64,000 nucleotides of DNA, taken from contig CALXVH010000003.1 of assembly GCA_944391965.1 (NCBI GenBank), forward strand, positions 22,551-86,550. Direction: 5' to 3'. The notes beneath the pieces were generated by a model. The model was not told the origin of the DNA and made no database searches. It was given only the letters and a program-made list of their open reading frames with translations. A program made the translations under genes and the position numbers. Each line of letters opens with the position of its first letter. Within the stretch, counting starts at the first letter, position 1. The stretch is from an uncultured Clostridia bacterium. GTDB lineage: Bacteria; Bacillota; Clostridia; TANB77; CAG-508. Below are positions 5,174 to 50,624 of the stretch, piece by piece.

Positions 5174-5620
5174 TTACATTACACCAACTCTGTAAAAACT
5201 GTCTCCAACTTTAAAGCCAGCATCGTTGGTTTCCGAAAGTTTCGTTTTCAACACTTGAACCCTTTCTTCTGATATGCAGACAATTGAAACTTCTTCGTCA
5301 CCTACATTTGTACAGTCTGCTTTATATTTCACAAACATAGGCCATGTGGAAATAGTACTATTTGTACTCTTTGGCATTGCAGCACAAAACATACAACCTT
5401 TTTCTTTTATGGTTGAATCGGTCTCCGGCATTTCTGCAAAAGATTCGATGTCATAAACCACATCCTTTGATAGTTCAAACTTGTTCTTATTTAGGATCCC
5501 ATATTCGCATATTGTGTCGTCTTCCACATCTGCAACAATAATTACAAAATGTGGATTCTCATCCTCTTGCATTCTCCGTCCATAAAGGTCGAAAATCTTA
5601 CAGTTTTTAAGTTTTCTCAT
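5174..5620 (-). CDS. hypothetical protein (island 1, gene A)
   Basis: 148-aa ORF with RBS AAAGGAG. It is GC-richer than its neighbours. The N-terminus LKNCKIFDLYGR...FVIIV is paralogous to the N-terminus of ORF 6472..6987. Confidence 0.7.
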   Translation of the reverse strand: MRKLKNCKIFDLYGRRMQEDENPHFVIIVADVEDDTICEYGILNKNKFELSKDVVYDIESFAEMPETDSTIKEKGCMFCAAMPKSTNSTISTWPMFVKYKADCTNVGDEEVSIVCISEERVQVLKTKLSETNDAGFKVGDSFYRVGVM

Positions 5621-5693
5621 GTTGTTTCTCCTTTCTTAGTTCCTCGCTACATTTAGCAAGTTTGCATCTTCTTTGTACATTTTTTGCAGTACA

Positions 5694-5722
5694 ATTTTAG
5701 CACATATTTACTTAAATTTCAA
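5694..5722 (-). promoter_or_regulatory. sigma-A type promoter for gene A
   Basis: On the minus strand, TTGAAA, a 17-nt spacer, then TAAAAT with an upstream TG (TGCTAAAAT). The predicted 5' UTR is about 75 nt. Confidence 0.5.
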
Positions 5723-5785
5723 ATATTGAATAAGTCATGAATTGTAATATCATATTAACTAAATATATTTTATACTTTACTTTAA

Positions 5786-5832
5786 TTAAAAAGAATAGAA
5801 GAACATCATAATAAAAATGTCCTCCTACTCTT
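5786..5832 (-). terminator. strand-specific terminator after gene B
   Basis: The minus-strand RNA AGAGUAGGAGGACAU pairs with AUGUUCUUCUAUUCU through several G-U pairs and is followed by a U-run. Confidence 0.6.
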
Positions 5833-5845
5833 TTTTGAAACAATA

Positions 5846-6433
5846 TTAAATTTTAGAAAGTGATACATATTTGCCTTCCGTATTACTGGCTTTTTTCACC
5901 TCTATATTGGCATTCCACATTCCTTCTGAATTTCTTGCAAACACTATGGCTTTCCGAAGGTTCTTTGAATCCTCATAAGTTAAGTATAATGGTAATTTCT
6001 CTTTTCTGTCCAATTTTATTCTTATAAAATAAACATTGGATAAAAAGTCACCAAGGTCACATTCTCCATCCACAAATCGAAGGCGTCTTATTACCTTTAC
6101 CTTATTCTTTTTTGCTTTTGGAATAAAAACATCATCCGGTACAGCTTCTGTTGACCTTACAAGGGCATAAATCTCACCAGTACATGGATCATATTCATCC
6201 GCAAAAACTATACGTTTTTCTGTAATTTCTTTCAAGACTAAATTATAAATCCATCGATTTGTTTTTAGCATTTTCCTTTTTACATTTGGAATTACAAATT
6301 CCACATATGGTTCTCTTTTTGTCTCTTTGTTATAATCTGGAATACGTAATGTAACTATTTCATCCTTTTGACGAACACTTACATTACCATTCCATTTCCG
6401 TTTGCATATTCCTTTGTTAATAAATAATCTCAT
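5846..6433 (-). CDS. hypothetical protein (island 1, gene B)
   Basis: 195-aa ORF with RBS GGAGG, 38 nt downstream of gene C. I recognise no motif. Confidence 0.65.
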   Translation of the reverse strand: MRLFINKGICKRKWNGNVSVRQKDEIVTLRIPDYNKETKREPYVEFVIPNVKRKMLKTNRWIYNLVLKEITEKRIVFADEYDPCTGEIYALVRSTEAVPDDVFIPKAKKNKVKVIRRLRFVDGECDLGDFLSNVYFIRIKLDRKEKLPLYLTYEDSKNLRKAIVFARNSEGMWNANIEVKKASNTEGKYVSLSKI

Positions 6434-6471
6434 AATACCTCCACAATTTAAAGTTTGTTTTTACTTCACTA

Positions 6472-6987
6472 TTACTCATCATATTTTGATGATAATTCAT
6501 AGAATTCATGCTCTCGGTAAATAAAACCTTTATCTTTTACATTTTCCAGTTTTACATGGATTTTAAAAATTGGTGAACATGGTTCTAATAATACTCCAGC
6601 TATTCTAATAATCTTTTCTTTTTCTTCCGGATGCTTCATTACATAGTAAACCAGTCTTGCCCAATCAACAAATGCTTCTTCGATTTCTTCACCAATTGCA
6701 GAATAAAAAGTAAATTTTCTCAGCCTTATAATACCAAAATTTAATGCTTCAATTTTAGCTAATGATGAGATTGTATACTCTTCTTCTAAGAAGTCGTCTT
6801 CATCTGAAAATCGTGTTTGAAAGATTCTTGTTTTTGGAAAATATAATCCTTCCCTATAAATTATATCTTCCGATTCATTCTTGCCTACAACTATAATAGG
6901 CATTATTTCTTCAGTTTGTAGTCTACCTAAAATCCGTCCTTCCTTGTTGAATATTTTGCAATTTTTTAATTCTCCTTTTTTCTCCAT
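6472..6987 (-). CDS. hypothetical protein (island 1, gene C)
   Basis: 171-aa ORF with N-terminus LKNCKIFNKEGR...PIIVV, similar to gene A. Confidence 0.7.
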   Translation of the reverse strand: MEKKGELKNCKIFNKEGRILGRLQTEEIMPIIVVGKNESEDIIYREGLYFPKTRIFQTRFSDEDDFLEEEYTISSLAKIEALNFGIIRLRKFTFYSAIGEEIEEAFVDWARLVYYVMKHPEEKEKIIRIAGVLLEPCSPIFKIHVKLENVKDKGFIYREHEFYELSSKYDE

Positions 6988-7054
6988 ACTGTTCCTTTCT
7001 GATGCTCATTACATTTGATGAGTCTTACACTAACTTCAACTTTGCTACACATAA

Positions 7055-7083
7055 ATTTTAGCATATTTTGTTTTTCTTTGCAA
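7055..7083 (-). promoter_or_regulatory. sigma-A type promoter for genes C-B
   Basis: On the minus strand, TTGCAA, a 17-nt spacer, then TAAAAT (ATATGCTAAAAT). The architecture is the same as the gene A promoter. Confidence 0.5.
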
Positions 7084-7138
7084 ACTTATGTATACCTAAC
7101 GTATTAATTTAATTCCTCCTTTATGCATCCAAAAAAAA

Positions 7139-7194
7139 GGGATTTAAGGAACGTCCCCAAATCCCGAATTTTTTCGCAGGACGCCTCAAATCCC
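7139..7194 (-). repeat. REP-like element doublet, locus R2, 3' of clpC
   Basis: GGGATTTAAGGAACGTCCCCAAATCCC plus a degenerate unit AGGACGCCTCAAATCCC. Confidence 0.85.
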
Positions 7195-9668: not shown

Positions 9669-10685
9669 TTACTCTTTTATAATTGTTTTAATAACTTCTG
9701 CTCTTTTAGCATCTAAATCAATTCCTTCTAATTTTGTTCCTAAATATTTTTGTAAGTTCGCATCTTGTGTATATAACAATAATCTGTTTATTTTTAGATC
9801 TGTTAATTCATTAATAATTCCTAAATCTGTTCCTAATTTTAATGTTGATAATAAATCTTTGCATTCACTTTCTGAAATTTTTCTACAGTTTGTTAAAATT
9901 CCATAATCTCTATATAATCTGTCTTCTAAATTTAGTCTATTCTTTCCTAAATATTTTCTTGCAATCCTTTCTTGCTCTATTATTTTATCTGTTATTAATT
10001 TTAGCTTCTTAATAATTTCTTTTTCAGAAATTCCTAAAGTTTGTTTATTAGATATTTGATATAATGCACCTTCAGATTTGCTACCTTCTCCGTGAATTCC
10101 AGTTACATTCATACCAAAATTATTTATTATTTCTAATACCTTTCCAATATTACCAGTAATTTGTAAAGCAGGTAAATGAACCATTACAGATGCCTTCATG
10201 GCTGTTCCTGCTTCTATCGGACATGCTGTTAAAAAGCCATATTTTTCACTAAATGCAAATTTTAATTTTTCGTCTAGGTATTCATCTAATTCAATAACTA
10301 GATTTAGCAAATTGTCCAACTCTAGTCCTGCACCAAATACTTGTAAACTAATATGATTATCTGTATGTATCATTGCACATACACTTTCTTCATCATTTAT
10401 AAGTATGGCTTTTGCAGTGTCTTTACCTTTTACAAAGTCTGGACTTATTAGTCTTTTTTCTATTAAGCTATTAATAGTAACATCATCCATATCTTTTAGT
10501 TTTAAAAGTTTAATTCCATATTTATTACCAATAATAGCTTCTTCTATTAACTTAGTTATTTCTTCTTTTTTTGCTCCATTACATTTTGTTTCAAATGGAT
10601 AATTTGATATATTTCTTGCTAATCTTATTCTTGAACTTACTATTACATCAGAATCTTTTCCACTTTGTAAATACCAATTTAGCAT
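9669..10685 (-). CDS. mcsB: protein arginine kinase McsB
   Basis: It has guanidino-kinase motifs (CPIEAGTAMKASVMVHLPAL) and lies between mcsA and clpC. Confidence 0.9.
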   Translation of the reverse strand: MLNWYLQSGKDSDVIVSSRIRLARNISNYPFETKCNGAKKEEITKLIEEAIIGNKYGIKLLKLKDMDDVTINSLIEKRLISPDFVKGKDTAKAILINDEESVCAMIHTDNHISLQVFGAGLELDNLLNLVIELDEYLDEKLKFAFSEKYGFLTACPIEAGTAMKASVMVHLPALQITGNIGKVLEIINNFGMNVTGIHGEGSKSEGALYQISNKQTLGISEKEIIKKLKLITDKIIEQERIARKYLGKNRLNLEDRLYRDYGILTNCRKISESECKDLLSTLKLGTDLGIINELTDLKINRLLLYTQDANLQKYLGTKLEGIDLDAKRAEVIKTIIKE

Positions 10686-12051: not shown

Positions 12052-13257
12052 ATGGACTTAAAATTTAGTAGTGTTGCTGCTACCCCATCTAACCCTAATT
12101 GGAATAATTTAATTTCAAGAAAAGACGAGTTGTATAAAAAAACAAATGATGTTCGCTCTGAATTTGAAAGAGATTATGATAGAATTTTATATTGTAATGC
12201 TTATAGAAGGTTAAAGCATAAAACACAAGTATTCTTTTTACCCAAAAATGATCATATTTGTACACGTATAGAACATGTAAATAATGTTGATGCAACAAGT
12301 TATACTATTGCAAAAGCATTAGGATTAAATACGACATTAACAAGAGCTATTTCTATATCTCACGATATTGGTCATAGTCCTTTTGGTCATAAAGGAGAAC
12401 AAATTCTAAACCAAATATGTTTAGAACATAACTTAGAACCTTTTTGGCATGAAAGAAATGGTTTGAATTTTGTTGATAATATAGAATTGCTAACAAATGT
12501 TAATAACGAAGAAAAAAATCTAAACTTAACATATGCAGTAAGAGATGGTATTATATCTCACTGTGGCGAAATAGATGAAATATCTCTAAAACCTAGGACT
12601 GAATTAATCGATTTAGAAAAAGATTATATTAAACTTAACCAATATTCTCCATATACTTGGGAGGGTTGTGTTGTTAAAATTTCTGATAAAATCTCATATC
12701 TAGGTAGAGATATAGAAGATGCCATTTCTATGGGAATACTAGATAGTAATTTAAATGAATTATATGATTTAATAGAACAACCTAGAAGCGCCAATTTAAA
12801 TAATACAAATATTATTGGTGATTTAATAGCTGATTTATGTGCGAATTCATCTGTAGATGAAGGGTTAAAGTTCTCTGATTCTACTTTTGAGAAGATAAAA
12901 AGATTGAAAGCATTTAATTATAAAAATATATATAAGCATAAGTGCATGAAACCTTCAGAAAGATATTTTAGTCTTGTGCTAAATGAAATATTTAATACAT
13001 TAAATGAGTGTTATGATGGTATGAATACTCTAGAGAAATTAAATAGTGAAAAACCTTTTTATACTAAAGTGATAGGTACTTTTATAAAGTGGATTTTTTG
13101 CTATTGGAATATAGAAACAGATAGAACTCATTTAAAAAATAAAATTTTATATGATATGAATAATATTAAAGATTATCAAACAGCTATTATTACATATATA
13201 TCTGGTATGACAGATAGTTATGCAATAGAAACATATAATGACATTGTAAAATATTAA
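12052..13257 (+). CDS. dGTPase-like HD-domain triphosphohydrolase
   Basis: It has the motifs YRRLKHKTQVF, HDIGHSPFGH and the C-terminal GMTDSYA. Confidence 0.8.
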   Translation: MDLKFSSVAATPSNPNWNNLISRKDELYKKTNDVRSEFERDYDRILYCNAYRRLKHKTQVFFLPKNDHICTRIEHVNNVDATSYTIAKALGLNTTLTRAISISHDIGHSPFGHKGEQILNQICLEHNLEPFWHERNGLNFVDNIELLTNVNNEEKNLNLTYAVRDGIISHCGEIDEISLKPRTELIDLEKDYIKLNQYSPYTWEGCVVKISDKISYLGRDIEDAISMGILDSNLNELYDLIEQPRSANLNNTNIIGDLIADLCANSSVDEGLKFSDSTFEKIKRLKAFNYKNIYKHKCMKPSERYFSLVLNEIFNTLNECYDGMNTLEKLNSEKPFYTKVIGTFIKWIFCYWNIETDRTHLKNKILYDMNNIKDYQTAIITYISGMTDSYAIETYNDIVKY

Positions 13258-13267
13258 TCATATATAA

Positions 13268-13297
13268 TAGGACATTTCTTAAAATGTTCTATTTTTA
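13268..13297 (+). terminator. terminator after the dGTPase-like gene
   Basis: TAGGACATTT / AAATGTTCTA stem followed by a T-run. Confidence 0.6.
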
Positions 13298-13389
13298 TGT
13301 AAATTATGATATAATATAATTGTTACACATAAATATTCAGCAAAATTAAAAGCTGAAACACTAAAGAAAAAAAGAAAAGGAGAATGTGT

Positions 13390-14028
13390 ATGGCAGTTTT
13401 ATTATTAGTAGTAATGTTGATTCTCAATTTCGTGATCTCTTGGTCTAATGCTCGGTATGTGGGCTATTATTGGACCGAATCAAAAGAAATTGGCGGTAGC
13501 TTCAGACGATATGTAGTCGCCGGCTATGTGATGGCAATAGCAGGATTTACTATGGTATATGCTTATCTTTTGCTTATCATAAGTCCTGTATTCTTGCAGA
13601 TGGCAGACATAGACCCTGAAGTAATTTTACAGATTGAACAGCTTTCAGCAGACTTAATTTATCTGTTTACAGTTGTTACAATTGTTCCCACAGGTTTTTA
13701 TATTTGGATTAGATCGTTAAAAACCGCCTGGGAAGAAAGAACTCTGTCATCCATTTTGACGGGAGGTTGGAACACTTATGCCCAGCTACATAATACAATA
13801 AGTGTAGCTCGGAATGCTCCAAGTGCCCTTGGTAGAGTTGCAAAAGCGCTCTTTGGTGGAAAAGGTAAGAAAAAGGATAATACGATTGTAATACTGGTTG
13901 CAATCTTTATTCTTATAGTTGCCATTTTCGGGGGTTATTTTACAGCCTCTGCCATAATGAAAAAAGCAGACAGAGAATACGATATGTTCGCAGATCTGCA
14001 AAGAAAACATCCAGAAATCGAACAATAG
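13390..14028 (+). CDS. hypothetical polytopic membrane protein (island 2)
   Basis: ORF 13384 trimmed to the second ATG, which is 7 nt from GGAGA. It has 4-5 hydrophobic segments. A 60-nt hand count gives about 45% GC. Confidence 0.65.
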   Translation: MAVLLLVVMLILNFVISWSNARYVGYYWTESKEIGGSFRRYVVAGYVMAIAGFTMVYAYLLLIISPVFLQMADIDPEVILQIEQLSADLIYLFTVVTIVPTGFYIWIRSLKTAWEERTLSSILTGGWNTYAQLHNTISVARNAPSALGRVAKALFGGKGKKKDNTIVILVAIFILIVAIFGGYFTASAIMKKADREYDMFADLQRKHPEIEQ

Positions 14029-14041
14029 CATACACAAAAAA

Positions 14042-17486: not shown

Positions 17487-17639
17487 CTTTTTCCTCCTAA
17501 ATCTATAGTACATTTTATATTATATACTACAAAATGTCCACTTATATATGTATATTTTTTATATGAAATAACTACATATTTTTATTGTTTTAATGATATA
17601 ATAATTTTGACTTTACAAGTTACGAAAGGATTTAATTTT

Positions 17640-19358
17640 ATGAAGACATTATTAAAATATTTAAGAAAATATAAAATAAATTTAATAGTTGGACCAATCT
17701 TAAAATTGTTAGAAGCAATAATAGAAGTACTATTGCCAATTATTATTGCCTTTTTTATAGATAATTATAATATATTTTCTACTACAGAGCTTATATACTA
17801 CTCTGTTGGATTAATTATACTTGTATTATTAGGGCTTATTTTTGCTTGTAGTGCACAATACATAGCTGCAATTACTTCGCAAGGATATAGCAAAACTTTG
17901 CGTGAAAAATTATTTGCTCATATTCAAAAAGTTCCTTCTAATAAATTAAATAGTATGGGTAGTTCTGCCATAGTTAATCGAATTATTAATGATGTTACTA
18001 ATTTAGAAACAGGAATTGCTATGTTCATAAGATTAGTAATAAGAGTTCCTTTTATTTTTATTGGCTCAATTATTATGATCTCATTAATAAACATACAAAT
18101 TGCAATAAATGTTCTTGTAGCAAGTATTATACTATTTCTAGTAATTTTACTAATTGCAAAATCTGCTAGTAAGATCTATCAAAAAGCTAATTTACAGTTA
18201 GACAAGCTAACATTAAGAATAAAAGAAAACTTAACTAATATTAAATTAATTCGTAGTTTTGTAACACAAAATACAGAAAAAACAAAATTTGATAAAGTAA
18301 ATAATCTAACATATATCTATAGTAAACTTGCAACTATTTTATCTTTTCTACTAAATCCTGTTTCTATATTTATTTTAAACTTTACTACACTAATAGTATT
18401 AAATATTAGCAATGTCGAATTTGGATTTGGGAATTTATCTAAAGGTGAAATTATTGCAATAATAAATTACATTTCAGAGATGCTATTAGCTGTTGTTGTA
18501 CTTTCAAACTTAGTTGCAATTTACACCAAAGCTTTCGCTTCTTTAAAGCGTATAATAGAATTATTTGATCTAAAAGAAAATAAACAAACTGGTAACCTTA
18601 AAGAATTTAAACCTAGTAACTTTGTTTTTGATATATCCAATGTAAACTTTTCATACTTTTCTACTGCCAATTTAAAAGATATTTCTTTGCTAGTAAAGCC
18701 AGGAGAAAGTATTGGTATTATTGGTCTTACAGGTTCAGGGAAAAGCACTTTTTTAAGACTTCTAAACAATACTTTAAATATTTCTTCTGGTAGCTTAAAA
18801 CTATATGGTGAAGATATAAATAAATATGATCCAAGCTTTTTAAAATCTAATATAACATATATTGGTCAAAAGCCTGATTTTATTACAGCTACAATTTTTG
18901 AAAACATCTCTTTAGGTAGAGATACTTCTAAAGAAGAAATCCAAAAAAGCTTGGAACTTTCTAATGCAAGTGAATTTGTAAATCAAAAAGAAAACTCCTT
19001 AAACTTTGTTTTACAAAATAATGCATCTAATTTATCTGGTGGTCAAAAACAACGTATAAACATCGCAAGAGGTTTTATTGGTAGTCCTAAAGTGTTAATT
19101 TTTGATGATGTTACAAGTGCATTAGATTTATACACAGAATCAAAAGTATTACAAAATATTTTTAAGTATTCTAAAGAACATAATATTACAACATTTATAG
19201 CTTCCCAAAAAACATCTACAATCAAAAACTGTTCTAAAATTTTAGTTTTTAATAACGGAAAAATTGAAAATATCGGTACACATACCGAGCTGTTAAAAAA
19301 TTCTGAATTGTATAGAAAAATATATGAACTTCAAAATAGCATAAGCAAAGGAGCATAA
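17640..19358 (+). CDS. ABC exporter, fused permease/ATPase subunit 1
   Basis: It has six TM helices, Walker A GLTGSGKST and the signature LSGGQKQR. Confidence 0.85.
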   Translation: MKTLLKYLRKYKINLIVGPILKLLEAIIEVLLPIIIAFFIDNYNIFSTTELIYYSVGLIILVLLGLIFACSAQYIAAITSQGYSKTLREKLFAHIQKVPSNKLNSMGSSAIVNRIINDVTNLETGIAMFIRLVIRVPFIFIGSIIMISLINIQIAINVLVASIILFLVILLIAKSASKIYQKANLQLDKLTLRIKENLTNIKLIRSFVTQNTEKTKFDKVNNLTYIYSKLATILSFLLNPVSIFILNFTTLIVLNISNVEFGFGNLSKGEIIAIINYISEMLLAVVVLSNLVAIYTKAFASLKRIIELFDLKENKQTGNLKEFKPSNFVFDISNVNFSYFSTANLKDISLLVKPGESIGIIGLTGSGKSTFLRLLNNTLNISSGSLKLYGEDINKYDPSFLKSNITYIGQKPDFITATIFENISLGRDTSKEEIQKSLELSNASEFVNQKENSLNFVLQNNASNLSGGQKQRINIARGFIGSPKVLIFDDVTSALDLYTESKVLQNIFKYSKEHNITTFIASQKTSTIKNCSKILVFNNGKIENIGTHTELLKNSELYRKIYELQNSISKGA

Positions 19359-19361
19359 CAC

Positions 19362-21062
19362 ATGAAATTGTTTAAATTTAAGTTTTCTAAATTTTATATT
19401 TTATTAATAATTATATTTTCTGTCCTTTCTGCATACTTAAGTATTACTTATCCTGTTATAATAGGTAATTTAATAGATAACCTAGGAACAAATACAAGTT
19501 TAATAAATTATTTTATTAAACTTGCTCTAATATTTATTTTTCTATTTATTAGTAATATTTTATTAAATTATTTTTTAACTAGTTATGCTACAAAACTTTC
19601 TCGAAATATTAGGACTATTCTTTTTAATATAATAAATACATTACCTCTATCTATTTTAGAAAACTTTGAAAAAGGTGAAATTATAAACATGTTTTCTACA
19701 GATATAGAAAATATTTCTAATGGAACTATGCAAAGTGTTTCTAAAATTATAAGTGGAATATTTACAATTATATTAGCTACTTATATAATGATAAATTTAA
19801 ATATACCTTTAACAGTTTTACTTATATTCTTATCTTTACTAATGTTTGCTATATCTAAATATATTGTTTCACATACAAATAATATGTTTGTTAAAAGAGC
19901 TGATTTATTAGCAAAGTTAAATGCATATACTGATGAATTAATAAGTGGTAAAAAGACTTTCGATAATTTTAATTATAATGAAATATCTAGCAAAAATTTT
20001 AAAGAAAAAAATTCTGAATTATATAACTATGGGTATAAAACGCAGTTTTATTCTTCACTTACAAATCCAAGTACTAGGTTCGTTTCAAACCTTTCTTATA
20101 TAATAATTGCTATGCTTGGAATTATATTTTGTAAAAACGGAAATTTAACAATTGGTAATATCTCTACTTTTTTAATATATACAAATTTGTTTACTAGACC
20201 ATTTAACGAGATAACAGCTGTGTTTAGTGAAATTCAGACTGCTATTGCTTCTTACAAAAGGATTTTAAAATTTATAACTACTCCTATTATAGAAAATCTA
20301 CCTTCTAGTAATAGTATTAAACTGCCAGAAAAACCTAATTATTCTATAGAATTTAAAAATGTATATTTTTCGTATACTGATAAACCTTTTATACAGGATC
20401 TTAATTTATATATTCCTAATGGAAAAAGTATTGCTATAGTTGGCAAAACAGGTTCTGGTAAAACTACAATAATTAATTTATTAAATAGATTTTATGAAAT
20501 ATCTAGTGGTGAAATATTAATTGATAATACAAATATAAAAGAGATTAATATTGATAATTTAAGAAAAAATATCGGTATGGTTCTTCAGGATACTAAGATT
20601 TTTCAAGGTACTATAAGGGAAAATATTGCATATGGAAAACCTAATGCAAGTATAGAAGAAATTAAACAAGCTGCAGAATTAGCTTTTGCAAACACATTTA
20701 TAGAAAAATTACCTGATGGTTATGATACGTATATATCAAATTCTGATATGCTTTCTGAAGGAGAAGTACAGTTATTAAACATTGCCAGAATTATGCTAAT
20801 AAAACCGCCTATCTTAATTTTGGATGAAGCCACAAGTAATATCGATTTACTAACAGAAGACATGATAAAAAAAGCTATTTTAAAATTAACAGAAAATTCT
20901 ACATCAATAATTATTGCACATAGATTATCTACAATAAAAAACTGTGATTTTATTGTTTTTATAGAAGATGGTAATATTGTAGAAGTTGGAACTCATGATG
21001 AATTAATTAATAAAAAAGGAGCATATTATAATATGTACAAAAGCCAATTTAATATTATTTAA
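19362..21062 (+). CDS. ABC exporter, fused permease/ATPase subunit 2
   Basis: It has Walker A GKTGSGKTT and a degenerate signature LSEGEVQ, which suggests a heterodimer with an asymmetric ATP site. Confidence 0.85.
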   Translation: MKLFKFKFSKFYILLIIIFSVLSAYLSITYPVIIGNLIDNLGTNTSLINYFIKLALIFIFLFISNILLNYFLTSYATKLSRNIRTILFNIINTLPLSILENFEKGEIINMFSTDIENISNGTMQSVSKIISGIFTIILATYIMINLNIPLTVLLIFLSLLMFAISKYIVSHTNNMFVKRADLLAKLNAYTDELISGKKTFDNFNYNEISSKNFKEKNSELYNYGYKTQFYSSLTNPSTRFVSNLSYIIIAMLGIIFCKNGNLTIGNISTFLIYTNLFTRPFNEITAVFSEIQTAIASYKRILKFITTPIIENLPSSNSIKLPEKPNYSIEFKNVYFSYTDKPFIQDLNLYIPNGKSIAIVGKTGSGKTTIINLLNRFYEISSGEILIDNTNIKEINIDNLRKNIGMVLQDTKIFQGTIRENIAYGKPNASIEEIKQAAELAFANTFIEKLPDGYDTYISNSDMLSEGEVQLLNIARIMLIKPPILILDEATSNIDLLTEDMIKKAILKLTENSTSIIIAHRLSTIKNCDFIVFIEDGNIVEVGTHDELINKKGAYYNMYKSQFNII

Positions 21063-21080
21063 TACAAAAAAGAAAAGCTT

Positions 21081-21422
21081 TTAGCTTTTCTTTTTAAATA
21101 TATTTTTTATTTTATCGAAGGCATTTACCTTTGCTCCTTCATTTTTCTTTCCATTTGCTATTCGTTCCATTAATTCTTTTCGTTGTTGTTCGTTTTCACA
21201 CCAATAATTAAAATTTAGTAAATTAACCATATCCTTTGTTTCTTTTTTCATTTTTAATTTTTCTAAAGGAGTTCCTTTTGGATATTTAGGTGTATAATTA
21301 TCGTCTTTTTTACTATTTATTAATTCTCTTAAGTCTTCTGGTATTTTGTTTCTTCTTTCTTCATCTATACTATCCAAAAAAGCATTAAGTTCCGAATAGA
21401 TTTCTTTACTTTTACTATCCAT
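21081..21422 (-). CDS. hypothetical protein
   Basis: Trimmed to MDSKSKEIY (RBS AAGGAGG). It has the native AT-rich composition. Confidence 0.55.
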   Translation of the reverse strand: MDSKSKEIYSELNAFLDSIDEERRNKIPEDLRELINSKKDDNYTPKYPKGTPLEKLKMKKETKDMVNLLNFNYWCENEQQRKELMERIANGKKNEGAKVNAFDKIKNIFKKKS

Positions 21423-21563
21423 ACCTATTTCCTCCTTTTCTAACGTTTTTATTTTACCATTATTTTGCTTGTCTTTCAAGTAAAAAATGTGGATTTATTA
21501 AATTGCAGAAATGAAATTTAAATCCCTTTCTACTAATAAAACCACATTTATTTTTTGCCATAT

Positions 21564-21728
21564 TTACTTACTATGTTTATCTTCTTTTTTTGTTATATTT
21601 TGTAATCGTTTTGCATTCTCTTTTTGATAACCTAAACTTATCCAAGCAAATTTTGTGGGTATGAATTCACCATTTCTGCTTACATCTTCCCCAACTTCTA
21701 TTTCATTAATCTCTTTTTCTTTTTTCAT
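21564..21728 (-). CDS. hypothetical 54-aa protein downstream of lexA
   Basis: Below the ORF-track cutoff. ATG 21728 is preceded by AGGTGA, and the product is MKKEKEINEIEVGEDVSRNGEFIPTKFAWISLGYQ... Confidence 0.35.
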   Translation of the reverse strand: MKKEKEINEIEVGEDVSRNGEFIPTKFAWISLGYQKENAKRLQNITKKEDKHSK

Positions 21729-21775
21729 AATATATTCACCTAAAATATATTATGTCTTAAGTCGTTTTTTTTATA

Positions 21776-22417
21776 CTACATTTTTCTAAATACGCCAGCT
21801 ACTTTACCAAGTATCTTACAATCTGGAACTATTATTGGAGCCATTGTACGATTTTCTGGTTGTAATCTTATATAATCTTTTTCTTTATAAAATGTTTTTA
21901 CTGTTGCTTCGTCATCTATTAAAGCTACAACAATTTCGCCATTTTCTGCAGTATTTTGTTGTTTAACTAATATATAGTCACCATCTAAAATACCTGCTTC
22001 TATCATACTTTCTCCTCTAACAGTTAGCATAAAGCTTTCTGAATTTCCTACGAAGTCTAAAGGAATTGGAAAAGTGTCTGTTATATTTTCTACTGCTAAG
22101 ATTGGTGCACCTGCAGTTATTTTTCCTACAACTGGTACATCTACCAATTCTTTACCAGCATATAAATCTTTTGGTTTTCTTATAACATCATCTTCGTTAA
22201 CAACTCTTAATGCTCTTCCTTTTTGAGATTCTTTTCTTATATAACCTTTTTGCTCTAATTTCTCTAAATATCCATGTACTGTTGCTGTTGAATTTAGTCC
22301 TACAGCTTTACAAATTTCTCTTACTGATGGTGGATATTGGTTTGCTTTTATTTGTTTTGATATAAAGTTTAAGATTGCTACTTCTCTTTTATTTAAATCA
22401 CTTTTATCTTTTTTCAC
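21776..22417 (-). CDS. lexA: SOS repressor LexA
   Basis: Trimmed to GTG 22417, 7 nt after GGAGGCG. It has an N-terminal wHTH and the S24 peptidase motifs [11 protein letters not shown] and ATVKTF. Confidence 0.92.
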
Positions 22418-22447
22418 TTGTTCACGCCTCCACTTTATTTTTTTACA

Positions 22448-22486
22448 TACTATCATATGATTTTTTGTTTGTCAAACAAAATTTCG
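22448..22486 (-). promoter_or_regulatory. lexA promoter with overlapping candidate LexA box
   Basis: The minus strand has TTGACA (22471-22476), a 17-nt spacer and TAGTAT (22448-22453). CGAAATTTTGTTTG at 22473-22486 resembles the Firmicute CGAAC-N4-GTTCG box. A 9+1+9 palindrome spans 22463-22481. Confidence 0.5.
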
Positions 22487-22525
22487 TTTTTTATAAAATT
22501 TTTATTTTTTTTTAAAAAGGAAATG

Positions 22526-22545
22526 CCCCCGGCTTTCGCCAGGGG
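22526..22545 (-). terminator. GC-rich hairpin after island 3
   Basis: The minus strand reads CCCCTGGCGAAAGCCGGGGG followed by a T-rich tract. Confidence 0.55.
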
Positions 22546-22569
22546 AAAAAGATGTGAAGTTTTGGTTTT

Positions 22570-23157
22570 TCAGATGATTTGTGCTGATGTACTCGGATTT
22601 TCTACTTCTGGAAGGTCGTCAGACGTAATATAGATTATTATCAAATCTATAATATCTGACAAGGTATCTACTCTGTCTTCCAACTGTTCATTCTGATACT
22701 CGATAAAATTCAGCTCCTGCTGAAGTTGCTCTGTTCTCTGTTCTAGATAGTTCAGTTTTGTATTCATACTTCCATAGTAGTATCCTAAAAAAGCACAGAG
22801 CACTGCTATAAGAATCCATTTTATATTCTTGTACTTTTCAGCGTTTGCTTCAGTGTTCTCTAACTGTTCATAATCTTCTTCGAGCTCTTCTCTGGTCCAC
22901 TCTTCGAAGCGTTCATGTCTCCTTGCTTCTTCCCGAAGCTCCTCTGTGCTATACTCAGAAAAAGTATAATTGCTTCTTAACAAATCTTCCAACTCCTGAT
23001 CAGAAAATTCGTTCAGATTAATATCTGGAAGAAGAACTCTTAATTTCTTCTCCAACTCTTTCCGAGTATACTTGGAGAAATCCTTATACACACGGATTTC
23101 TTCTTCCAAGTCTTTACGGGTCATTTTGTCAAATCTGTCTTTAAAAAACATATGCAT
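22570..23157 (-). CDS. hypothetical single-pass membrane protein with repeated F-x-x-[YW]-[TS]-x-x-E-L-E motif (island 3)
   Basis: 195 aa with five motif copies (FDKMTRKDLEEE, FSKYTRKELEKK, FSDQELEDL, FSEYSTEELREE, FEEWTREELEED), one TM helix and a coiled coil. Its start is coupled to the upstream stop (TAAATG). Confidence 0.65.
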   Translation of the reverse strand: MHMFFKDRFDKMTRKDLEEEIRVYKDFSKYTRKELEKKLRVLLPDINLNEFSDQELEDLLRSNYTFSEYSTEELREEARRHERFEEWTREELEEDYEQLENTEANAEKYKNIKWILIAVLCAFLGYYYGSMNTKLNYLEQRTEQLQQELNFIEYQNEQLEDRVDTLSDIIDLIIIYITSDDLPEVENPSTSAQII

Positions 23158-23511
23158 TTAACCTCCTAATTTGACTGAATCTTTAACATTTACATAGTAT
23201 TCTTTAATAATTGCTTCAAGTTCTTCCAGCGTTTTTGGATTTTTTCTCTCAACAAACGCATATAAGAAGTAGTTGAATGTTCTGATTAATTCCATCTTCT
23301 CCTGCATACTTCCCTCAAAATAAAGCAACTTTTCTGTAGCTTGGACTACATACTTTTGAACAAGGTCATTGATAAATTTATAATCTTGTTCCTTCGCCCA
23401 GCCCTGTTCGACTGCCTCGACTCCTTCATCTCCAATTTCCTCATATACTGTGGGTAAGCATACCCTCAGCAAGAATATCTTTTCGCTATTCTTTTTGTTA
23501 AACTCTCTCAT
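23158..23511 (-). CDS. hypothetical protein (island 3)
   Basis: 117-aa ORF with RBS GGAGG, visibly GC-richer than the neighbouring genes. Confidence 0.6.
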   Translation of the reverse strand: MREFNKKNSEKIFLLRVCLPTVYEEIGDEGVEAVEQGWAKEQDYKFINDLVQKYVVQATEKLLYFEGSMQEKMELIRTFNYFLYAFVERKNPKTLEELEAIIKEYYVNVKDSVKLGG

Positions 23512-23637: not shown

Positions 23638-23692
23638 TGGCAGATTCCTACCCCATACCATCAAATTCATATAATAATTTTTACAATTTTTA

Positions 23693-41808: not shown

Positions 41809-42699
41809 ATGATTAAAGAAAAATTTGACTTTTATGATAAAACTGTCTTAAAATCTTACGATTTAGATTCAACAGCTAGATATCAATTAAAAATGCTAGA
41901 TTCTCTAGATAATTTTACAAGGAAACATTCTGAAGGTGTAGCAAATATAACTTGTAGAATCTGTGACTATCTTCATTTAAATAAAGATTTTACTACTTAT
42001 TGTACAACTTGTGCATATTTACATGATATTGGTAAAATGTTTATTCCACCATCTATTCTTCAAAAACCTGCAAAACTTACAGATGAAGAATATGAAATCA
42101 TGAAAACACATACAACTATTGGATATAAAATGTGTATGAATGACGTTAATTTAAGACCTTATTCAGCTGGTCCTAAATGTCACCACGAAGCATTAAATGG
42201 TAAAGGTTATCCTGAGGGCTTAAAAGGTGATGATATACCAATAGAGGCACAAATTATTAGAGTAGCCGATGAATTTGATGCAATTGTTAGTAAAAGACAA
42301 TATAAATCACACGTTGGTATTATTGATACTTTAAAAATATTAATTGAAAATGCACATAATGGAAAAAATAACATTCCAGCTACAAAAGCTTTAAAAAAAG
42401 TTGTAATAGATGATACAATTTACGAAATTTCATGTGCTTTTAACTATTTAGATTACTTAAAAGATAATATAAAGAGACTTCAACAAATAAAAAAATATTA
42501 TGATAAGATGAATTCTTCAAATTCTGATAAACAAAAGAATTATTACTTAGAAGGTATGAAAATGCTATTTGATAAAGGTGAAACCGTAGAAAACTTCGAG
42601 GAAATCCTTGATGAATATAAGAAAGCTTTAGCAGACAAAGAATCACATATAGATAAGTTAAATACAGAATTAAAAGAAATCAGAAAATTAAAAATATAA
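41809..42699 (+). CDS. HD-GYP domain protein, paralogue 1
   Basis: Motifs HSEGVA, YLHDIGK and HHEALNGKGYPEG are present. No sensor domain is evident. Confidence 0.8.
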   Translation: MIKEKFDFYDKTVLKSYDLDSTARYQLKMLDSLDNFTRKHSEGVANITCRICDYLHLNKDFTTYCTTCAYLHDIGKMFIPPSILQKPAKLTDEEYEIMKTHTTIGYKMCMNDVNLRPYSAGPKCHHEALNGKGYPEGLKGDDIPIEAQIIRVADEFDAIVSKRQYKSHVGIIDTLKILIENAHNGKNNIPATKALKKVVIDDTIYEISCAFNYLDYLKDNIKRLQQIKKYYDKMNSSNSDKQKNYYLEGMKMLFDKGETVENFEEILDEYKKALADKESHIDKLNTELKEIRKLKI

Positions 42700-42722: not shown

Positions 42723-43661
42723 ATGTTTGAGGAAAAATTTGATTTTTATGATAAAACAACTTTAAAATCATATAATTTAGATATCACTATGAGATATCAG
42801 TTAACTATGCTAGATAGTTTAGACCCCTTTACAAGAATTCATAGTGAAAATGTTGCAAGTATTACATGTAGGTTATGCGAATATTTACGTTGCGATAAGA
42901 ATTTTACTGCTTATTGTACTATTTGTGCATATTTACATGATATTGGTAAAATGTTTATTCCTGCAAAAATACTAAATAAACCTGACAAATTAACAGACGA
43001 AGAATTTTCTATAATGAAAACACATACACTTATAGGCTATAAAATGTGTATGGATGATATTAAATTAAGACCTTATGCACTAGGTCCAAAATATCATCAT
43101 GAAACTTTGGATGGTACAGGATATCCAGAAGGATTAGTTGGAAATTTAATTCCATATGAAGATCAAATTATAAAGGTTGCAGATGACTATGATGCATTAG
43201 TTACTAAAAGACAATATAAAACTCATATTCATATATCAGATACTTTAAAAGATTTAATTAAAGATACTGAACCAAATGTAAAAGTGGCAGCTCTTGATAA
43301 TGCAGCTCAAGGTGTAAAACTTGGAAAACTTAATAAAAAAGTTGTAAAGGCTTTATTTAAAGTTGTTATTGATGATACTTACTATGAAATTAGTTGTGTT
43401 ACAGGCTATGTTGACTATTTAAAAGATCAAATCAAAAGAATTGAACAAATCTTAGAATATGAAGAAAAAATGGATAAAGCTCATTCTGAAAAAAAGAAGA
43501 ATTACTATAAAGAAGGAATGGAAATGCTGTTTCAGGAAGGCGAAAATTTTGAAAATATTCATAAGATATATCATGAATATCAAACAGCATATTTAACAAG
43601 AAAAGAAATTGTAGAAAAATTATATGAAGAAATTAGAATCATAAAAAAATTACAAGTATAG
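42723..43661 (+). CDS. HD-GYP domain protein, paralogue 2
   Basis: Motifs HSENVA, YLHDIGK and HHETLDGTGYPEG are present. It is collinear with paralogue 1 from FDFYDKT to the C-terminal coiled coil. Confidence 0.8.
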   Translation: MFEEKFDFYDKTTLKSYNLDITMRYQLTMLDSLDPFTRIHSENVASITCRLCEYLRCDKNFTAYCTICAYLHDIGKMFIPAKILNKPDKLTDEEFSIMKTHTLIGYKMCMDDIKLRPYALGPKYHHETLDGTGYPEGLVGNLIPYEDQIIKVADDYDALVTKRQYKTHIHISDTLKDLIKDTEPNVKVAALDNAAQGVKLGKLNKKVVKALFKVVIDDTYYEISCVTGYVDYLKDQIKRIEQILEYEEKMDKAHSEKKKNYYKEGMEMLFQEGENFENIHKIYHEYQTAYLTRKEIVEKLYEEIRIIKKLQV

Positions 43662-47159: not shown

Positions 47160-47975
47160 TTATCTTCTACCTTTTCTTTTCTTATTTCTTCTTTTTCTAT
47201 TATTATGTATCACAGGTTCTTGTTTTAACTGTGTATTTGTTGTTAAATTATTATTTTCCTTTTTTACATTGTTTGTACTTACTTCATTTTTACTTTGTGC
47301 ATTCTCTTTTTCTTCTATTTTTTTATTGTCTGTTTCATCATTCTTTGTATTAGTATCTGTTTGAGATTCTTTGTTTTCAGTATTTTCTTCTATCTTACTT
47401 GACTTTACTTCTTCTTTTTTCACTTCTTCATTTTTTTGAATATCTTTATTTTCTTCATTTGGTTTTTCTGTCTTAATTTCTTCTGCTTTTACATCTTCTT
47501 TTTTATCTTCTACTTTATCTGTTATATTATTTTCTTCTACCTTAATTTCTTTTTTCTGTTCTATTTTATTATTTACTTCTTCATCTTTTTTTGCATTTTG
47601 AGTATCTTGATTATTAACATTCTTTTCTTCTATTTCTTGTTCTTGAACTTTTTCTACTACTTCGTCATCCATTTCCCCAGTATGTTTAATGCTAACAATT
47701 GGAATATTAGCATATAATGCTGGTGCTGAAGCTGTACCGTCTTCATTTGTCTTACTCGTCAAATGAACATCTATTTCTTTTTCATCAACATCGATATATT
47801 TTTTTATTACATCTATAATTTCTTGTTTCATCATTTCTAAGAAGTCAGCAGAAACGTTTGCTCTATCTTGCATTAATACTAGATGTAATCTTTCTTTTGC
47901 CATGTCTTTATTGTTTTCTTCTTCCTCTTCTTTTTTAAATATTTTTTTGAAGAAACCTACTATATTTTCGAACAT
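47160..47975 (-). CDS. minE: cell division topological specificity factor MinE with a ~165-aa low-complexity C-terminal extension
   Basis: The N-terminal amphipathic segment is FENIVGFFKKIFKK and the MinE core is AKERLHLVLMQDRANVSADFLEMMKQEIIDVIKKYI. A K/E/N-rich tail follows and ends RKRRNKKRKGRR. Confidence 0.8.
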   Translation of the reverse strand: MFENIVGFFKKIFKKEEEEENNKDMAKERLHLVLMQDRANVSADFLEMMKQEIIDVIKKYIDVDEKEIDVHLTSKTNEDGTASAPALYANIPIVSIKHTGEMDDEVVEKVQEQEIEEKNVNNQDTQNAKKDEEVNNKIEQKKEIKVEENNITDKVEDKKEDVKAEEIKTEKPNEENKDIQKNEEVKKEEVKSSKIEENTENKESQTDTNTKNDETDNKKIEEKENAQSKNEVSTNNVKKENNNLTTNTQLKQEPVIHNNRKRRNKKRKGRR

Positions 47976-47994
47976 ATTTTACCTCCAATGTTAA

Positions 47995-48789
47995 TTATTT
48001 TCTTTTAAAAAATCTTTTTAAAGCTGCCAAGAATCCTTTTTCTCTTCCTGGTATTGTTACTTCTATATCCTCTCCTAGAATACGCTTAGCAGTTTCCATA
48101 TATGCTTTACCTGAAGGTGCTTTTCTGTTAGATATAACAGGTTCCCCTTTATTTGTTTGAGTAATTACATATTCGTCATCTGGTACTACTCCTAAAAGTT
48201 CTATTGATAATAAATCTACTATATCATCAACATCCATCATTTTACCTTTTCTAACCATTTCTGGTCTTAGTTTATTTATGATTAATTGTGGATTTTTTAT
48301 ATCAGATGATTCTAATAATCCTATTATTCTATCAGCATCTCTTATGGCTGAAATCTCTGGCATTGTTACAACTATTGCCTTATCTGCTCCTACAATTGCA
48401 TTTTTAAAACCTTGTTCTATTCCTGCAGGACAATCTATTAAAATATAGTCAAATTCTTCTTTTAACTGTTTTGTTAAATCTCTCATTTGTTCTTCTGTTA
48501 TTGCACTTTTATCTCTTGTTTGGGCAGCAGGTAATAGGAATAATTCTTGAAAACGCTTGTCCTTTATTAATGCTTGTCTTAATTTACATTTTTCTTCTAC
48601 AACATCAACGATATCGTATACAATTCTATTTTCTAACCCCATTACGACATCCAAGTTACGAAGACCTATATCTGTATCTACTAATACTACTTTTTTGCCT
48701 TCTAGCGCTAGGGCAGAACCTAAGTTAGCTGTTGTAGTTGTTTTTCCTACTCCTCCTTTACCAGATGTTATAACTATTACTTCTCCCAT
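47995..48789 (-). CDS. minD: septum site-determining ATPase MinD
   Basis: It has the deviant Walker A GKGGVGKTT and a C-terminal amphipathic helix. Confidence 0.95.
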   Translation of the reverse strand: MGEVIVITSGKGGVGKTTTTANLGSALALEGKKVVLVDTDIGLRNLDVVMGLENRIVYDIVDVVEEKCKLRQALIKDKRFQELFLLPAAQTRDKSAITEEQMRDLTKQLKEEFDYILIDCPAGIEQGFKNAIVGADKAIVVTMPEISAIRDADRIIGLLESSDIKNPQLIINKLRPEMVRKGKMMDVDDIVDLLSIELLGVVPDDEYVITQTNKGEPVISNRKAPSGKAYMETAKRILGEDIEVTIPGREKGFLAALKRFFKRK

Positions 48790-48938
48790 AAATCTTCCTC
48801 CTTAAGCTAGTGCTTTCATATCTCATTTATACATAAAATTTGACATTACTATAATATATGAAAAAGTATAAAAAGTCAATCTTAGAAAGCTTATTTGCGT
48901 AAGATTTATACGTTTTTTTAATCTATATTTTTAGACGG

Positions 48939-48970
48939 AAAAAGAGCAGGATACTATCCTGCTCCTTTTT
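48939..48970. terminator. terminator after island 6
   Basis: GAGCAGG / CCTGCTC stem with T-runs on both strands. Confidence 0.65.
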
Positions 48971-48977
48971 GTGAATT

Positions 48978-50624
48978 TTAGAAATATGGCGAATAAAAGT
49001 AGAAAAATATTTCTATATATTTCTCTTTTACTCCCATCTTTTGCTGTGCCTTGGAAAATTCTTCTTTGCTTATAAAACCATTATCTATAGCCTCTAGCAC
49101 CTTTAGAGATTTATCCAAATCAGCATTTTTTGTTGAAAGATTATTGAGAGAGAATTGCATCACTTCTCTTCTGACGCCTTCCTTATAAGTTTTCATCGAT
49201 GTTTCTGTTACTTCTTTTAATAATTCTGGAGAACTATGTTTTTCTTTTTGTGTAGATGCATGCCCTAGTAACACGCTCAGAGCTTCCATTTTATTTTTGG
49301 CTGTTTTAACTTTTGAGTCTAACTGCTTTATCTCATTAATTGTTAGCTCAAAAAAAGTTTCTTCAACAGCTTCTTTAAGTTTTTGCTCTTCTTTATCTGT
49401 AATAAATGGTGTTTCATCTTCCTTAATTTTTAATAAAAACAAGCTCTCTAAAAATTTCCAATCAGCTTTGTCTACACCCCTCTTTTCCATCTCATTAGCC
49501 ATAATTGGTCTTGTAAAATAAAACATTTGGAAAAAAAAGCTGATGACATTTAGTATATCTTCATTTGCGACCGGTTTTTTATACACATAATCTACATCAA
49601 AATCTTCTAGCACTTCCAATAAAATTTCTTTTATTTTCCGTGCCATTACAACAGCTTCATTCCTTACAATATTCTTCTCCTCTTTTGTTAGAGTGAAATA
49701 AATTGCAAGGAAATTTTCGTCATGCATAATAATTGCTTGAGCAAGATTAAAATATAAATTTTCATCCTGCAAAGACTTTCCATTGCATTCTGTTTTTATG
49801 TCTATGACATATTTCTCCATTTTTTGTATCATCGTGCTATTAAATAAGCCGCAATCATATAACAAATACTGCTTAGACATTGTTTTTTCCTTCCAGAAAG
49901 CAACTCTTTCTTTAGGCAGTTTCACCATAATATTCTCAAACAGCATTTCTCTAAAAATACTATTTTCCAAAATTGCCCAAAGTAAAGATGCACTCTCCCA
50001 GCCTTTATCCAGTATATCCAAAATTATTACAATATAATAAGTTATGCGATTTGCCAATTGTTCCGCATATCTGCCAGATATATTTCTTATTTTGCTTAAA
50101 ATTTGATCAGGCAATATTATTCCTGACAAATCTGTTTCTGTTGTAATTTCAAAAGCATCCACCCCATATAGGTCAACCATATGAATTCTGGGCAGATATT
50201 CTTCTGCTTTTACTTCTATTAACACGTTTTCAAGAAAGTCTTTATTCTCAAAAGCTTCCAGAATCGTGTCTATAGTATGCTTTTTTGCAATTTTTTTGTA
50301 TGCATCTTTTAGCTGAATTGTTTTTCCCAAAGTTGCTAACGCAATTTGGGTTAACAAGTCATACTCCTCGCATATTTGTTTTTGGGTTTCGTTCATTTCA
50401 TTGTAGAATATCTGTTGAACTCTGTCCCAAAGCATCATAGCAGTATTTTTTCTTTCCGGATCCTCGTGATCTACACGATAAAACCGGTTTAAATTCATTG
50501 CCGAAAATTTTAGCGAACTTAATTCCTCCTCTCTAAAGTCTTTCGCCACAAGTTTCTTTAAATTTCCAAAGTACAAATCAAACTCTTTTAATTCCTTTGG
50601 TCTTAGTTTTTTTCGAATAATCAT
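48978..50624 (-). CDS. hypothetical 548-aa helical protein (island 6)
   Basis: Long ORF with RBS GGAGG, GC-richer than its neighbours. I recognise no motif. Confidence 0.65.
   Translation of the reverse strand: MIIRKKLRPKELKEFDLYFGNLKKLVAKDFREEELSSLKFSAMNLNRFYRVDHEDPERKNTAMMLWDRVQQIFYNEMNETQKQICEEYDLLTQIALATLGKTIQLKDAYKKIAKKHTIDTILEAFENKDFLENVLIEVKAEEYLPRIHMVDLYGVDAFEITTETDLSGIILPDQILSKIRNISGRYAEQLANRITYYIVIILDILDKGWESASLLWAILENSIFREMLFENIMVKLPKERVAFWKEKTMSKQYLLYDCGLFNSTMIQKMEKYVIDIKTECNGKSLQDENLYFNLAQAIIMHDENFLAIYFTLTKEEKNIVRNEAVVMARKIKEILLEVLEDFDVDYVYKKPVANEDILNVISFFFQMFYFTRPIMANEMEKRGVDKADWKFLESLFLLKIKEDETPFITDKEEQKLKEAVEETFFELTINEIKQLDSKVKTAKNKMEALSVLLGHASTQKEKHSSPELLKEVTETSMKTYKEGVRREVMQFSLNNLSTKNADLDKSLKVLEAIDNGFISKEEFSKAQQKMGVKEKYIEIFFYFYSPYF

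Follow-up and report, generated by a model that had tools for sequence, protein, structure and literature searches.

The 64,000-nucleotide (nt) stretch analysed here (the window; C3:22551-86550) belongs to a gut Clostridia genome assembly of 1.50 Mb in 45 contigs which is 92% complete and has a G+C content (GC) of 27.5%. Its genes include ctsR-mcsA-mcsB-clpC, lexA, T-box-serS, a sortase gene, minD-minE-rodA and the genes of a four-subunit pyruvate:ferredoxin oxidoreductase (PFOR), a set typical of Firmicutes of the Clostridia type. Six segments (I1 to I6) were studied which the initial annotation had described as GC-richer islands of orphan genes, inserted at six places and possibly derived from a shared donor lineage. 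Their nine open reading frames (ORFs) are listed below together with their GC at third codon positions (GC3) and with a hairpin resembling repetitive extragenic palindromes (REP).

I1a, 5174-5620, minus strand: lineage-restricted protein of 148 amino acids (aa), GC3 0.327; own extended -10 element, hairpin terminator shared with dapB
I1b, 5846-6433, minus strand: protein of 195 aa from a small, fast-diverging family, GC3 0.227
I1c, 6472-6987, minus strand: protein of 171 aa, GC3 0.194; heads the I1c-I1b unit, which has the promoter TGCTAAAAT
I2, 13384-14028, plus strand: multi-pass membrane protein of 214 aa, GC3 0.324; presence/absence cassette at about 13257-14040
I3a, 22570-23157, minus strand: acidic repeat protein of 195 aa with one C-terminal transmembrane (TM) segment, GC3 0.387; fast-evolving, in a fixed slot upstream of lexA
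I3b, 23158-23511, minus strand: protein of 117 aa, GC3 0.371; heads the I3b-I3a unit, which has the promoter TGGTATAAT
I4, 26709-28265 (ORF 26813-28159), plus strand: purA cassette in the old serS-engB slot, equipped with a promoter and a terminator of its own, GC3 0.266
I5, 28963-30009, minus strand: protein of 348 aa, GC3 0.282; fixed-slot hyperdivergent gene between engB and DUF951-sortase
I6, 48978-50624, minus strand: all-alpha protein of 548 aa, GC3 0.291; fixed slot between the PFOR operon and minD
REP-like hairpin AGGGATTTAAGGAACGTCCCCAAATCCCT, 7133-7166, with 12 further sites at 2069, 23598, 25593, 32222, 38054/38074, 43661/43703, 51421, 53984, 54437 and 55437

Composition and transcription units of the islands

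Genome-wide, 1372 ORFs were called and their GC was split by codon position. GC3 of the nine island ORFs ranged from 0.194 to 0.387 as compared to a genome median of 0.135 (91st to 99th percentile; robust z 1.9-8.0; Mann-Whitney p=7e-7), and their GC1 and GC2 showed nothing unusual. The island segments are compositionally distinct at synonymous sites. Total GC had been given as 45-48% on the basis of 60-nt samples. The four counts concerned are exact (45.0, 48.3, 15.0 and 35.0%) but do not represent the whole islands, for which values of 31.2, 38.5, 36.1, 38.8, 34.9 and 31.7% (islands 1 to 6) were obtained. Measured against genomic 600-bp windows (mean 27.5%, sd 3.5), total GC is outlying in four islands (z 2.1-3.3) and within the usual range in islands 1 and 6 (z 1.1-1.2). 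The atypical composition initially ascribed to the islands thus holds for the third positions of all nine ORFs, but for total GC of four islands only.

The GC3 excess spans whole genes and stops at gene borders. Along I5 and I6 it bears no relation to within-gene conservation and hence is not tied to variable segments. A collagen-like prophage fibre gene (58752-60458) has 37% GC, yet a GC3 of 0.134; its GC content is therefore due to amino-acid composition. In the genome as a whole the GC3 distribution has a long right tail, with 139 of the 1372 ORFs at or above 0.19 and 88 at or above 0.22. At the former threshold the high-GC3 genes form 100 single-gene runs, 15 runs of two and three runs of three. 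Most look like small lineage-specific proteins, and a few are spurious ORFs. Their codon usage matches that of the window islands, with G- and C-ending codons both increased (fractions in high-GC3 and bulk genes: CAG, 0.46 and 0.09; CTG, 0.10 and 0.01; CGG, 0.11 and 0.00; CCG, 0.15 and 0.03).

Every island unit carries an extended -10 element of the form TGnTAnAAT and a G+C hairpin terminator, as initially annotated, and the segments are separate transcription units without mobility genes. It also proved correct that no REP copy lies inside an island: the window contains 13 copies, none of them within the islands. Genome-wide, AGGGATTTAAGGAACGTCCCCAAATCCCT occurs in about 157-196 copies depending on the mismatches permitted, mostly directly 3' of stop codons. 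Two inverted copies flank a Y1-transposase-like gene at 54481-55266.

The reported lack of an integrase, tRNA or direct repeat at the island boundaries was borne out by checks of the window, the island proteins and the junctions. The window has no tRNA gene; searches in Pfam, NCBIfam, PHROGs and PADLOC returned no match for the island ORFs that suggested an integrase or transposase; and no target-site duplication was seen at any junction, the empty sites of relatives carrying 4-152 bp of unrelated filler. For the island proteins PADLOC gave no convincing defence-system match, and no paralogues of the island genes were found elsewhere in the genome. The term orphan fits eight of the nine proteins, which have neither a Pfam match above the curated cut-off nor an NCBIfam match. 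It does not fit island 4, which is purA, and I2 matches phrog_37671. A diversity-generating retroelement was rejected as the cause of the pattern because the one in this genome lies on another contig and the GC3 excess covers whole genes and not a variable region.

Variability and turnover of the island slots

The genome under study (G000) was compared by DNA searches with 12 congeners (G001 to G012) and eight genomes from other families of its order, and syntenic stretches were then fetched and examined by BLAST; same-slot homologues of the island ORFs in congeners were sought by tblastn. The window is collinear with G003, G012, G005, G006, G008 and G010, and the breaks coincide with the six islands. 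The flanks of I3, I5 and I6 are about 84-97% identical at the nucleotide level across congeners. All nine island ORFs, as opposed to two of the 40 other genes, were absent or undetectable at the DNA level in at least one congener in which the flanks were present (Fisher p=2.7e-8). Within the window, the islands coincide exactly with what differs between congeners. In a second region (20 kb, contig C4), three of four high-GC3 genes showed the same variability.

Two kinds of islands can be distinguished. I1, I2 and purA are presence/absence cassettes that occur sporadically among close relatives. I3, I5 and I6 are hyperdivergent genes in fixed slots; homologues fill these slots in most congeners and fall into allele classes separated by deep divergence (25-50% aa identity). 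Six insertions, as initially proposed, are not supported by these data, since I3, I5 and I6 occupy the same slots in more distant relatives as well, in the form of highly diverged homologues, and since the serS-purA-engB arrangement is found across the family, so that the absence of purA in most congeners is probably due to loss. Conserved synteny across relatives, which the initial annotation itself had regarded as incompatible with its claim, was found for three of the six islands (I3, I5 and I6) and not for I1, I2 and purA. The ratio of nonsynonymous to synonymous substitution rates (dN/dS) was 0.1-0.44 for island genes as compared to mostly 0.02-0.1 in native neighbours, which shows that the ORFs are real genes under weaker constraint. 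There was no sign of gene-wide positive selection in the dN/dS of the islands.

Among the cassettes, I1 (5182-7187) is present in G003 and G012, and in G006 its 2006 bp are replaced by 152 bp of unrelated filler. Accordingly, I1c is found in G003 and G012 and is missing in G006; I1b is 100% identical to G003 and also missing in G006. I2 was found among congeners only in G002 (84.5% aa identity). Its site is empty in G003, G012, G005, G006 and G010, with REP-like filler in G003 and G012. The hairpin of island 2 is retained at the empty sites of the latter two genomes and is therefore native. The purA site is empty in G003, G012 and G006, where 18-25 bp are found instead, and purA is present in the same slot in G004 (62% aa identity). 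Other metagenome-assembled genomes (MAGs) likewise have purA in this slot (57-74% identity in global alignment; GC3 0.25-0.33). Genomes of another genus (g11) show the order serS-purA-engB, with purA 64% identical at the aa level and serS 90-91% identical. These arrangements show the slot to be old and ancestral, and the absence of purA in most congeners accordingly looks like loss and not like an insertion in the present genome. Across the order, purA was detected in 48 of 201 genomes, and its sequences are of three or more types (about 64%, 45% and 26-29% identity). Given this distribution, most of the small genomes of the order may rely on salvage to make AMP. The only GC-richer purA found (in a MAG of 40% GC) is 33% identical.

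As regards the fixed slots, homologues of I3a share 88, 83, 78, 65 and 33% aa identity in G003, G012, G006, G005 and G008, respectively (dN/dS 0.2-0.3), and I3b ranges from 95 down to 54% in congeners. The I3 slot of G010 holds a different GC3-rich ORF of 91 aa. For I5, identity is 51% in G003 and G005 and 28-29% in G006, G012 and G008, with flanks about 90% identical at the nucleotide level; the gene is absent from G010. Distant I5 relatives (40-44% identity) have sortase-DUF951 on one side and engB on the other, and their neighbourhoods are collinear throughout. I6 shows 85% aa identity in G012 and 80% in G005, 25-29% in G003, G006 and G008, and is absent in G010 and G001, the empty site in G010 being 4 bp long. 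Relatives of I6 at 48% and 42% identity are also located between PFOR and minD.

Two congeners have insertions of their own of 4-4.5 kb in this region (G012:C14, about 21279-25833, and G006:C11, about 89664-93682, relative to window positions 25612-25686 and 21061-21064, respectively). That of G006 is devoid of any ORF with a GC3 of 0.19 or more, and hence not all variable DNA of the region is GC3-rich.

We infer that homologous recombination within the conserved flanking genes is the route by which alleles and cassettes are exchanged or lost; turnover of this kind would require no integrase, tRNA site or target duplication. The grouping of allele classes is discordant with flank similarity: for I6, the genome under study, G012 and G005 stand against G003 and G006, and for I5, G006 groups with G012. 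Identity along the window is mosaic. I1b, I1c and mcsB are identical to G003 and their neighbours about 96% identical, and I1a (89% aa identity to G003) has a synonymous divergence (dS) of 0.46 though the adjoining I1b and I1c are identical. Stretches 5846-6987 and 9669-10685 are 100% identical to G003. In the third part of the mosaic (17607-21062), the two ABC-transporter genes share 83-85% identity with G003 as compared to 94-97% with G012 and G006. This interspecies mosaic indicates frequent recombination between nominal species. When compared with G003, dS is 0.50 in engB and 0.45 in the sortase gene beside I5, and 0.07-0.15 further out. No such peak is present beside I6.

A similar mode of exchange, by homologous recombination in conserved flanks, has been proposed for replacement flexible genomic islands (Lopez-Perez et al. 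2014, PMC4033161). Shared features are the use of the same slot for different or hyperdivergent content, conserved core flanks and the lack of mobility genes; the alleles discordant with the clonal frame and the raised dS in the genes bordering I5 would fit as well. In contrast to the multi-gene clusters described there, the units of the window are single genes of 0.35-1.6 kb; they were compared across species (about 83-96% nucleotide identity) and not between strains; and their products, instead of being exposed glycosylation or surface structures, are mostly predicted to be cytoplasmic. I5 (multi-winged-helix) and I6 (all-alpha) are not predicted to be surface structures.

Origin of the elevated GC3

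GC3 differs between gene classes: it is 0.105 in ribosomal-protein genes, 0.129 in bulk genes and 0.290-0.301 in islands. At fourfold degenerate sites, the share of codons ending in G or C climbs from 1.8% in the 22 genes of the ribosomal-protein cluster (taken to represent highly expressed genes) to 7.1% in bulk genes and reaches 25% in islands. Across the genome, intergenic DNA has a GC of 0.24-0.25. The codon usage shared by the islands thus equals the background composition of the genome, as expected under little codon selection. Synonymous changes were polarised with outgroups (ingroup/outgroup, synonymous-only, parsimony), which is an approximate procedure. From the polarised tip substitutions, equilibrium values (GC3*) of 0.26-0.33 (native genes), 0.32-0.36 (islands) and 0.29-0.35 (intergenic DNA) were obtained. 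With an actual GC3 of 0.24-0.30 the islands are near equilibrium, and native genes (0.08-0.13) are far below it. In the comparison of G000 and G012, 69 changes from A or T to G or C (W>S) were seen in islands versus about 18 expected under decay toward 0.13. An all-site singleton polarisation with five taxa was dropped because the direction of change could not be inferred for an outgroup-like taxon.

Every homologue or allele examined, in all species and genera, has a GC3 of 0.20-0.42 as compared to 0.07-0.19 in the flanks, even at 25-50% aa identity; the purA of g11 is a native-like homologue in the same slot, with a GC3 of 0.10-0.13. Among native genes alone, GC3 drops as protein conservation rises (rho -0.38, p=0.015).

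A gradient of this type has been reported for genomes below about 36% GC ("group A"), in which GC3 decreases from singletons via core genes to highly expressed genes (Lopez et al. 2020, mBio, PMC7374057). It was attributed by these authors to selection for NNA/NNU codons under decoding by tRNAs with U34 only, opposing a mutation pattern which favours GC3 gain in the most AT-rich bacteria (see also PMC2936529). The present genome, at 27.5% GC, falls below the 36% limit and shows the same order of GC3 (unique above core above highly expressed genes). It agrees with group A also in that GC3 decreases from variable via bulk to ribosomal-protein genes and that NNA/NNU codons are enriched in core genes. 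As far as the incomplete tRNA set goes, the detection of U34 tRNAs only for several fourfold boxes would fit too. The classes contrasted here were island, bulk and ribosomal-protein genes, in place of the ancestry classes C1 to Cn of that study. Unlike in that study, which is statistical by gene class, high-GC3 genes were mapped singly to synteny breaks and hypervariable slots.

In our reading, two known phenomena meet in the islands: slots for the replacement or indel of single genes, in a genus that recombines, and the codon-selection gradient of very AT-rich genomes. We consider it probable that they are the host's own weakly constrained, lineage-restricted variable genes, arranged as self-contained units in slots and GC-rich through escape from selection for AT-ending codons. 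This account of GC3 is based on the gradient described above and on the published rule. In a genome as AT-rich as this one, fourfold boxes would be read by U34 tRNAs alone, and selection would push core genes, and highly expressed genes even more so, to A/U-ending codons and below the mutational background. Fast evolution and dispensability or swappability would allow the island genes largely to escape this selection, leaving their synonymous sites at background. By the same reasoning, the housekeeping genes and not the islands would be the compositional outliers.

Several observations do not fit easily with escape from codon selection. A near-consensus extended -10 element at each unit sits oddly with plain weak expression. 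The DUF951 gene next to the I5 slot has a raised GC3 in relatives (0.21-0.25) despite good conservation. Conversely, the tail of minE shows 72% aa identity yet a GC3 of 0.14; some fast native genes thus keep a low GC3, and divergence alone does not predict the shift. GC3 of I3a, I3b, I1a and I2 (0.32-0.39) exceeds intergenic GC (0.24-0.25), and intergenic DNA, which contains terminators, ribosome-binding sites and REPs, is an imperfect neutral standard. Polarisation by parsimony is biased under skewed composition, and the island counts are small (28/19 and 69/41). The 4:1 excess of W>S changes in native genes could also reflect non-equilibrium instead of purged deleterious changes. Detection of U34 tRNAs alone for the Gly, Pro, Ser(UCN), Val and Leu(CUN) boxes is based on an incomplete set of 25 tRNAs from a 92%-complete MAG. 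Finally, the I2 cassette may have originated by transfer, given its phage-borne relatives.

Repeated uptake of foreign DNA from a moderately GC-richer pool (phage, plasmid or another gut lineage), followed by partial amelioration, might explain why unit boundaries are sharp, why each unit has a promoter and a terminator, and why codon usage is coherent, shared with about 80 other genes and raised in G- and C-ending codons alike. The match of I2 to a phage family and to phage ORFs, the patchy occurrence of purA in the order and the lack of I1, I2 and purA in close congeners point in the same direction. We nevertheless regard this origin as unlikely. No GC-richer homologue was found; the relatives of island genes found so far are all on Clostridia contigs of 27-31% GC, those of I5 and I2 in genomes of 27-28% GC, and the I6 family consists of nine clusters, all sampled members of which are in the same slot. 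GC3 is high in alleles that differ at 25-50% aa identity within AT-rich hosts, where amelioration should have removed the excess, and the observed number of W>S changes is too large for decay toward 0.13. Moreover, the prophage genes of the window have a native GC3, mostly 0.09-0.15 with one gene at 0.19, and integrase, tRNA and target-site duplication are lacking at the islands. A shared donor lineage in particular is not supported, given the confinement of the families to AT-rich Clostridia, the persistence of high GC3 in all alleles except purA of g11, and the lack of decay in the polarised changes. The feature itself is real, but to read it as six insertions from a GC-rich donor is largely wrong.

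A local GC-biased process, be it biased gene conversion at swapped slots or a locus-targeted mutator, would raise GC3 and substitution rate together. In line with this, high GC3 is found where slots are hypervariable or swapped by recombination, third positions change about twice as fast, and purA is fast and GC3-rich in the present lineage but slow and GC3-poor in the same slot of g11. Yet the clearly recombining flanks, i.e. the mosaic stretches of 100% identity, have the lowest GC3, the elevation ends at gene borders and is uniform inside genes, GC3* is about equal in native, island and intergenic sites with no island-specific bias visible, and heteroduplex repair is impossible within non-homologous allele classes; such a process therefore seems quite improbable. 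Still smaller is the chance that selection maintains the rare G- and C-ending codons because they throttle or condition translation or shape mRNA structure. CGG, CTG, CCG and CTC, near-unused in bulk genes, reach 4-15% in island genes, the bias persists across alleles, and a strong promoter paired with poor codons is what one would expect if translation were tightly limited. The background, however, predicts the profile (25% G+C at fourfold sites versus 24-25% in intergenic DNA) and leaves no codon-specific pattern beyond, and GC3 is not clustered by position in 40-codon windows along I5 and I6. A further suggestion, which we hold to be rather unlikely, is that the I3 pair, I5 and I6 are determinants under frequency-dependent selection, such as undescribed phage-sensing, immunity or exclusion factors, whose GC3 might then be maintained by a recurrent recombination-linked GC-biased process in small AT-rich genomes and not by relaxed codon selection alone.

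The islands resemble classical horizontally acquired islands or islets in their atypical composition, their location between housekeeping genes and the sporadic occurrence of three of the six. They differ from these in that integrase, tRNA or att site, direct repeat and donor were not found, that synteny across the genus holds for three of the six, and that their composition is stable and not ameliorating. The GC3 pattern is known from earlier work and can be explained without a foreign donor. Where orphan islands of an extremely AT-rich genome are GC-richer, a foreign origin should not be assumed by default: calls of horizontal gene transfer based on composition would mislabel about 6% of the genes here, and it is the core genes that are shifted from the background.

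Island products and neighbouring genes

No match was obtained for I1a in Pfam, NCBIfam, PHROG or PADLOC; it is a distant paralogue of I1c (23% identity, E 2e-5). The I1b family comprises 51 representatives (24-53% identity) among 1.84 billion proteins. I2 matches phrog_37671 with an E value of 2e-20 and also has relatives among phage ORFs; at least 371 homologue clusters (about 70-99% identity) were found in AT-rich Clostridia MAGs, at another locus. TM segments are present only in I2 and I3a among the island proteins. I4 is the adenylosuccinate synthase PurA (NF002223, 441.3 bits with a cut-off of 402; TIGR00184, 402.3 bits with a cut-off of 395.55; PF00709, 449.5 bits). A PurZ-type phage enzyme was rejected, as the PurZ model scored 112 bits versus a cut-off of 300.

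The I5 family comprises at least 50 clusters. In a model by AlphaFold2 (AF2; pLDDT 75), the protein is predicted to have an alpha/beta domain at its N-terminus and three winged helices after it, and this predicted fold matched tandem winged-helix proteins, e.g. RPC62, SelB-C and ScpB. Only its winged-helix part resembles the helix-turn-helix domain of Csa3 (PADLOC). I6 belongs to a family of just nine clusters among 5.8 billion proteins and has a conserved N-terminus (MIIRxKLRPKELxEF). Its AF2 model (pLDDT 81, pTM 0.76) predicts an all-alpha protein, for which neither sequence nor fold searches found a match in the PDB. No signal peptide or TM segment was evident in I5 and I6 when the sequences were read without a predictor, and the products are predicted to be cytoplasmic. 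I5 and I6 mark fixed hypervariable slots with uncharacterised products, the fold of I6 being confidently modelled and without PDB match. A role of I6 as substitute for MinC was discarded since a MinC_C gene is present elsewhere, on C2.

A conserved DUF951 gene (58 aa) lies between the sortase gene and the I5 slot in relatives; it is located at 3785-3961 in L045 and 5646-5822 in L046, and the corresponding position in the window would be about 30200-30380. Upstream of serS, a T-box leader (23736-23941; RF00230, 112.7 bits) adjoins the I3 promoter region and a REP copy. The MinE homologue (47160-47975, 271 aa) has a long, low-complexity C-terminal extension rich in Lys, Glu and Asn which evolves fast (dN 0.09-0.16) with a native GC3 of 0.14. 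Two HD-domain paralogues in tandem (41809-42699 and 42723-43661) are about 68-69% identical to each other at the nucleotide level, and the pair is conserved in congeners. The end of the window (54000-64000) is prophage-like and encodes an amidase, the collagen-like fibre and a protein of 1041 aa.

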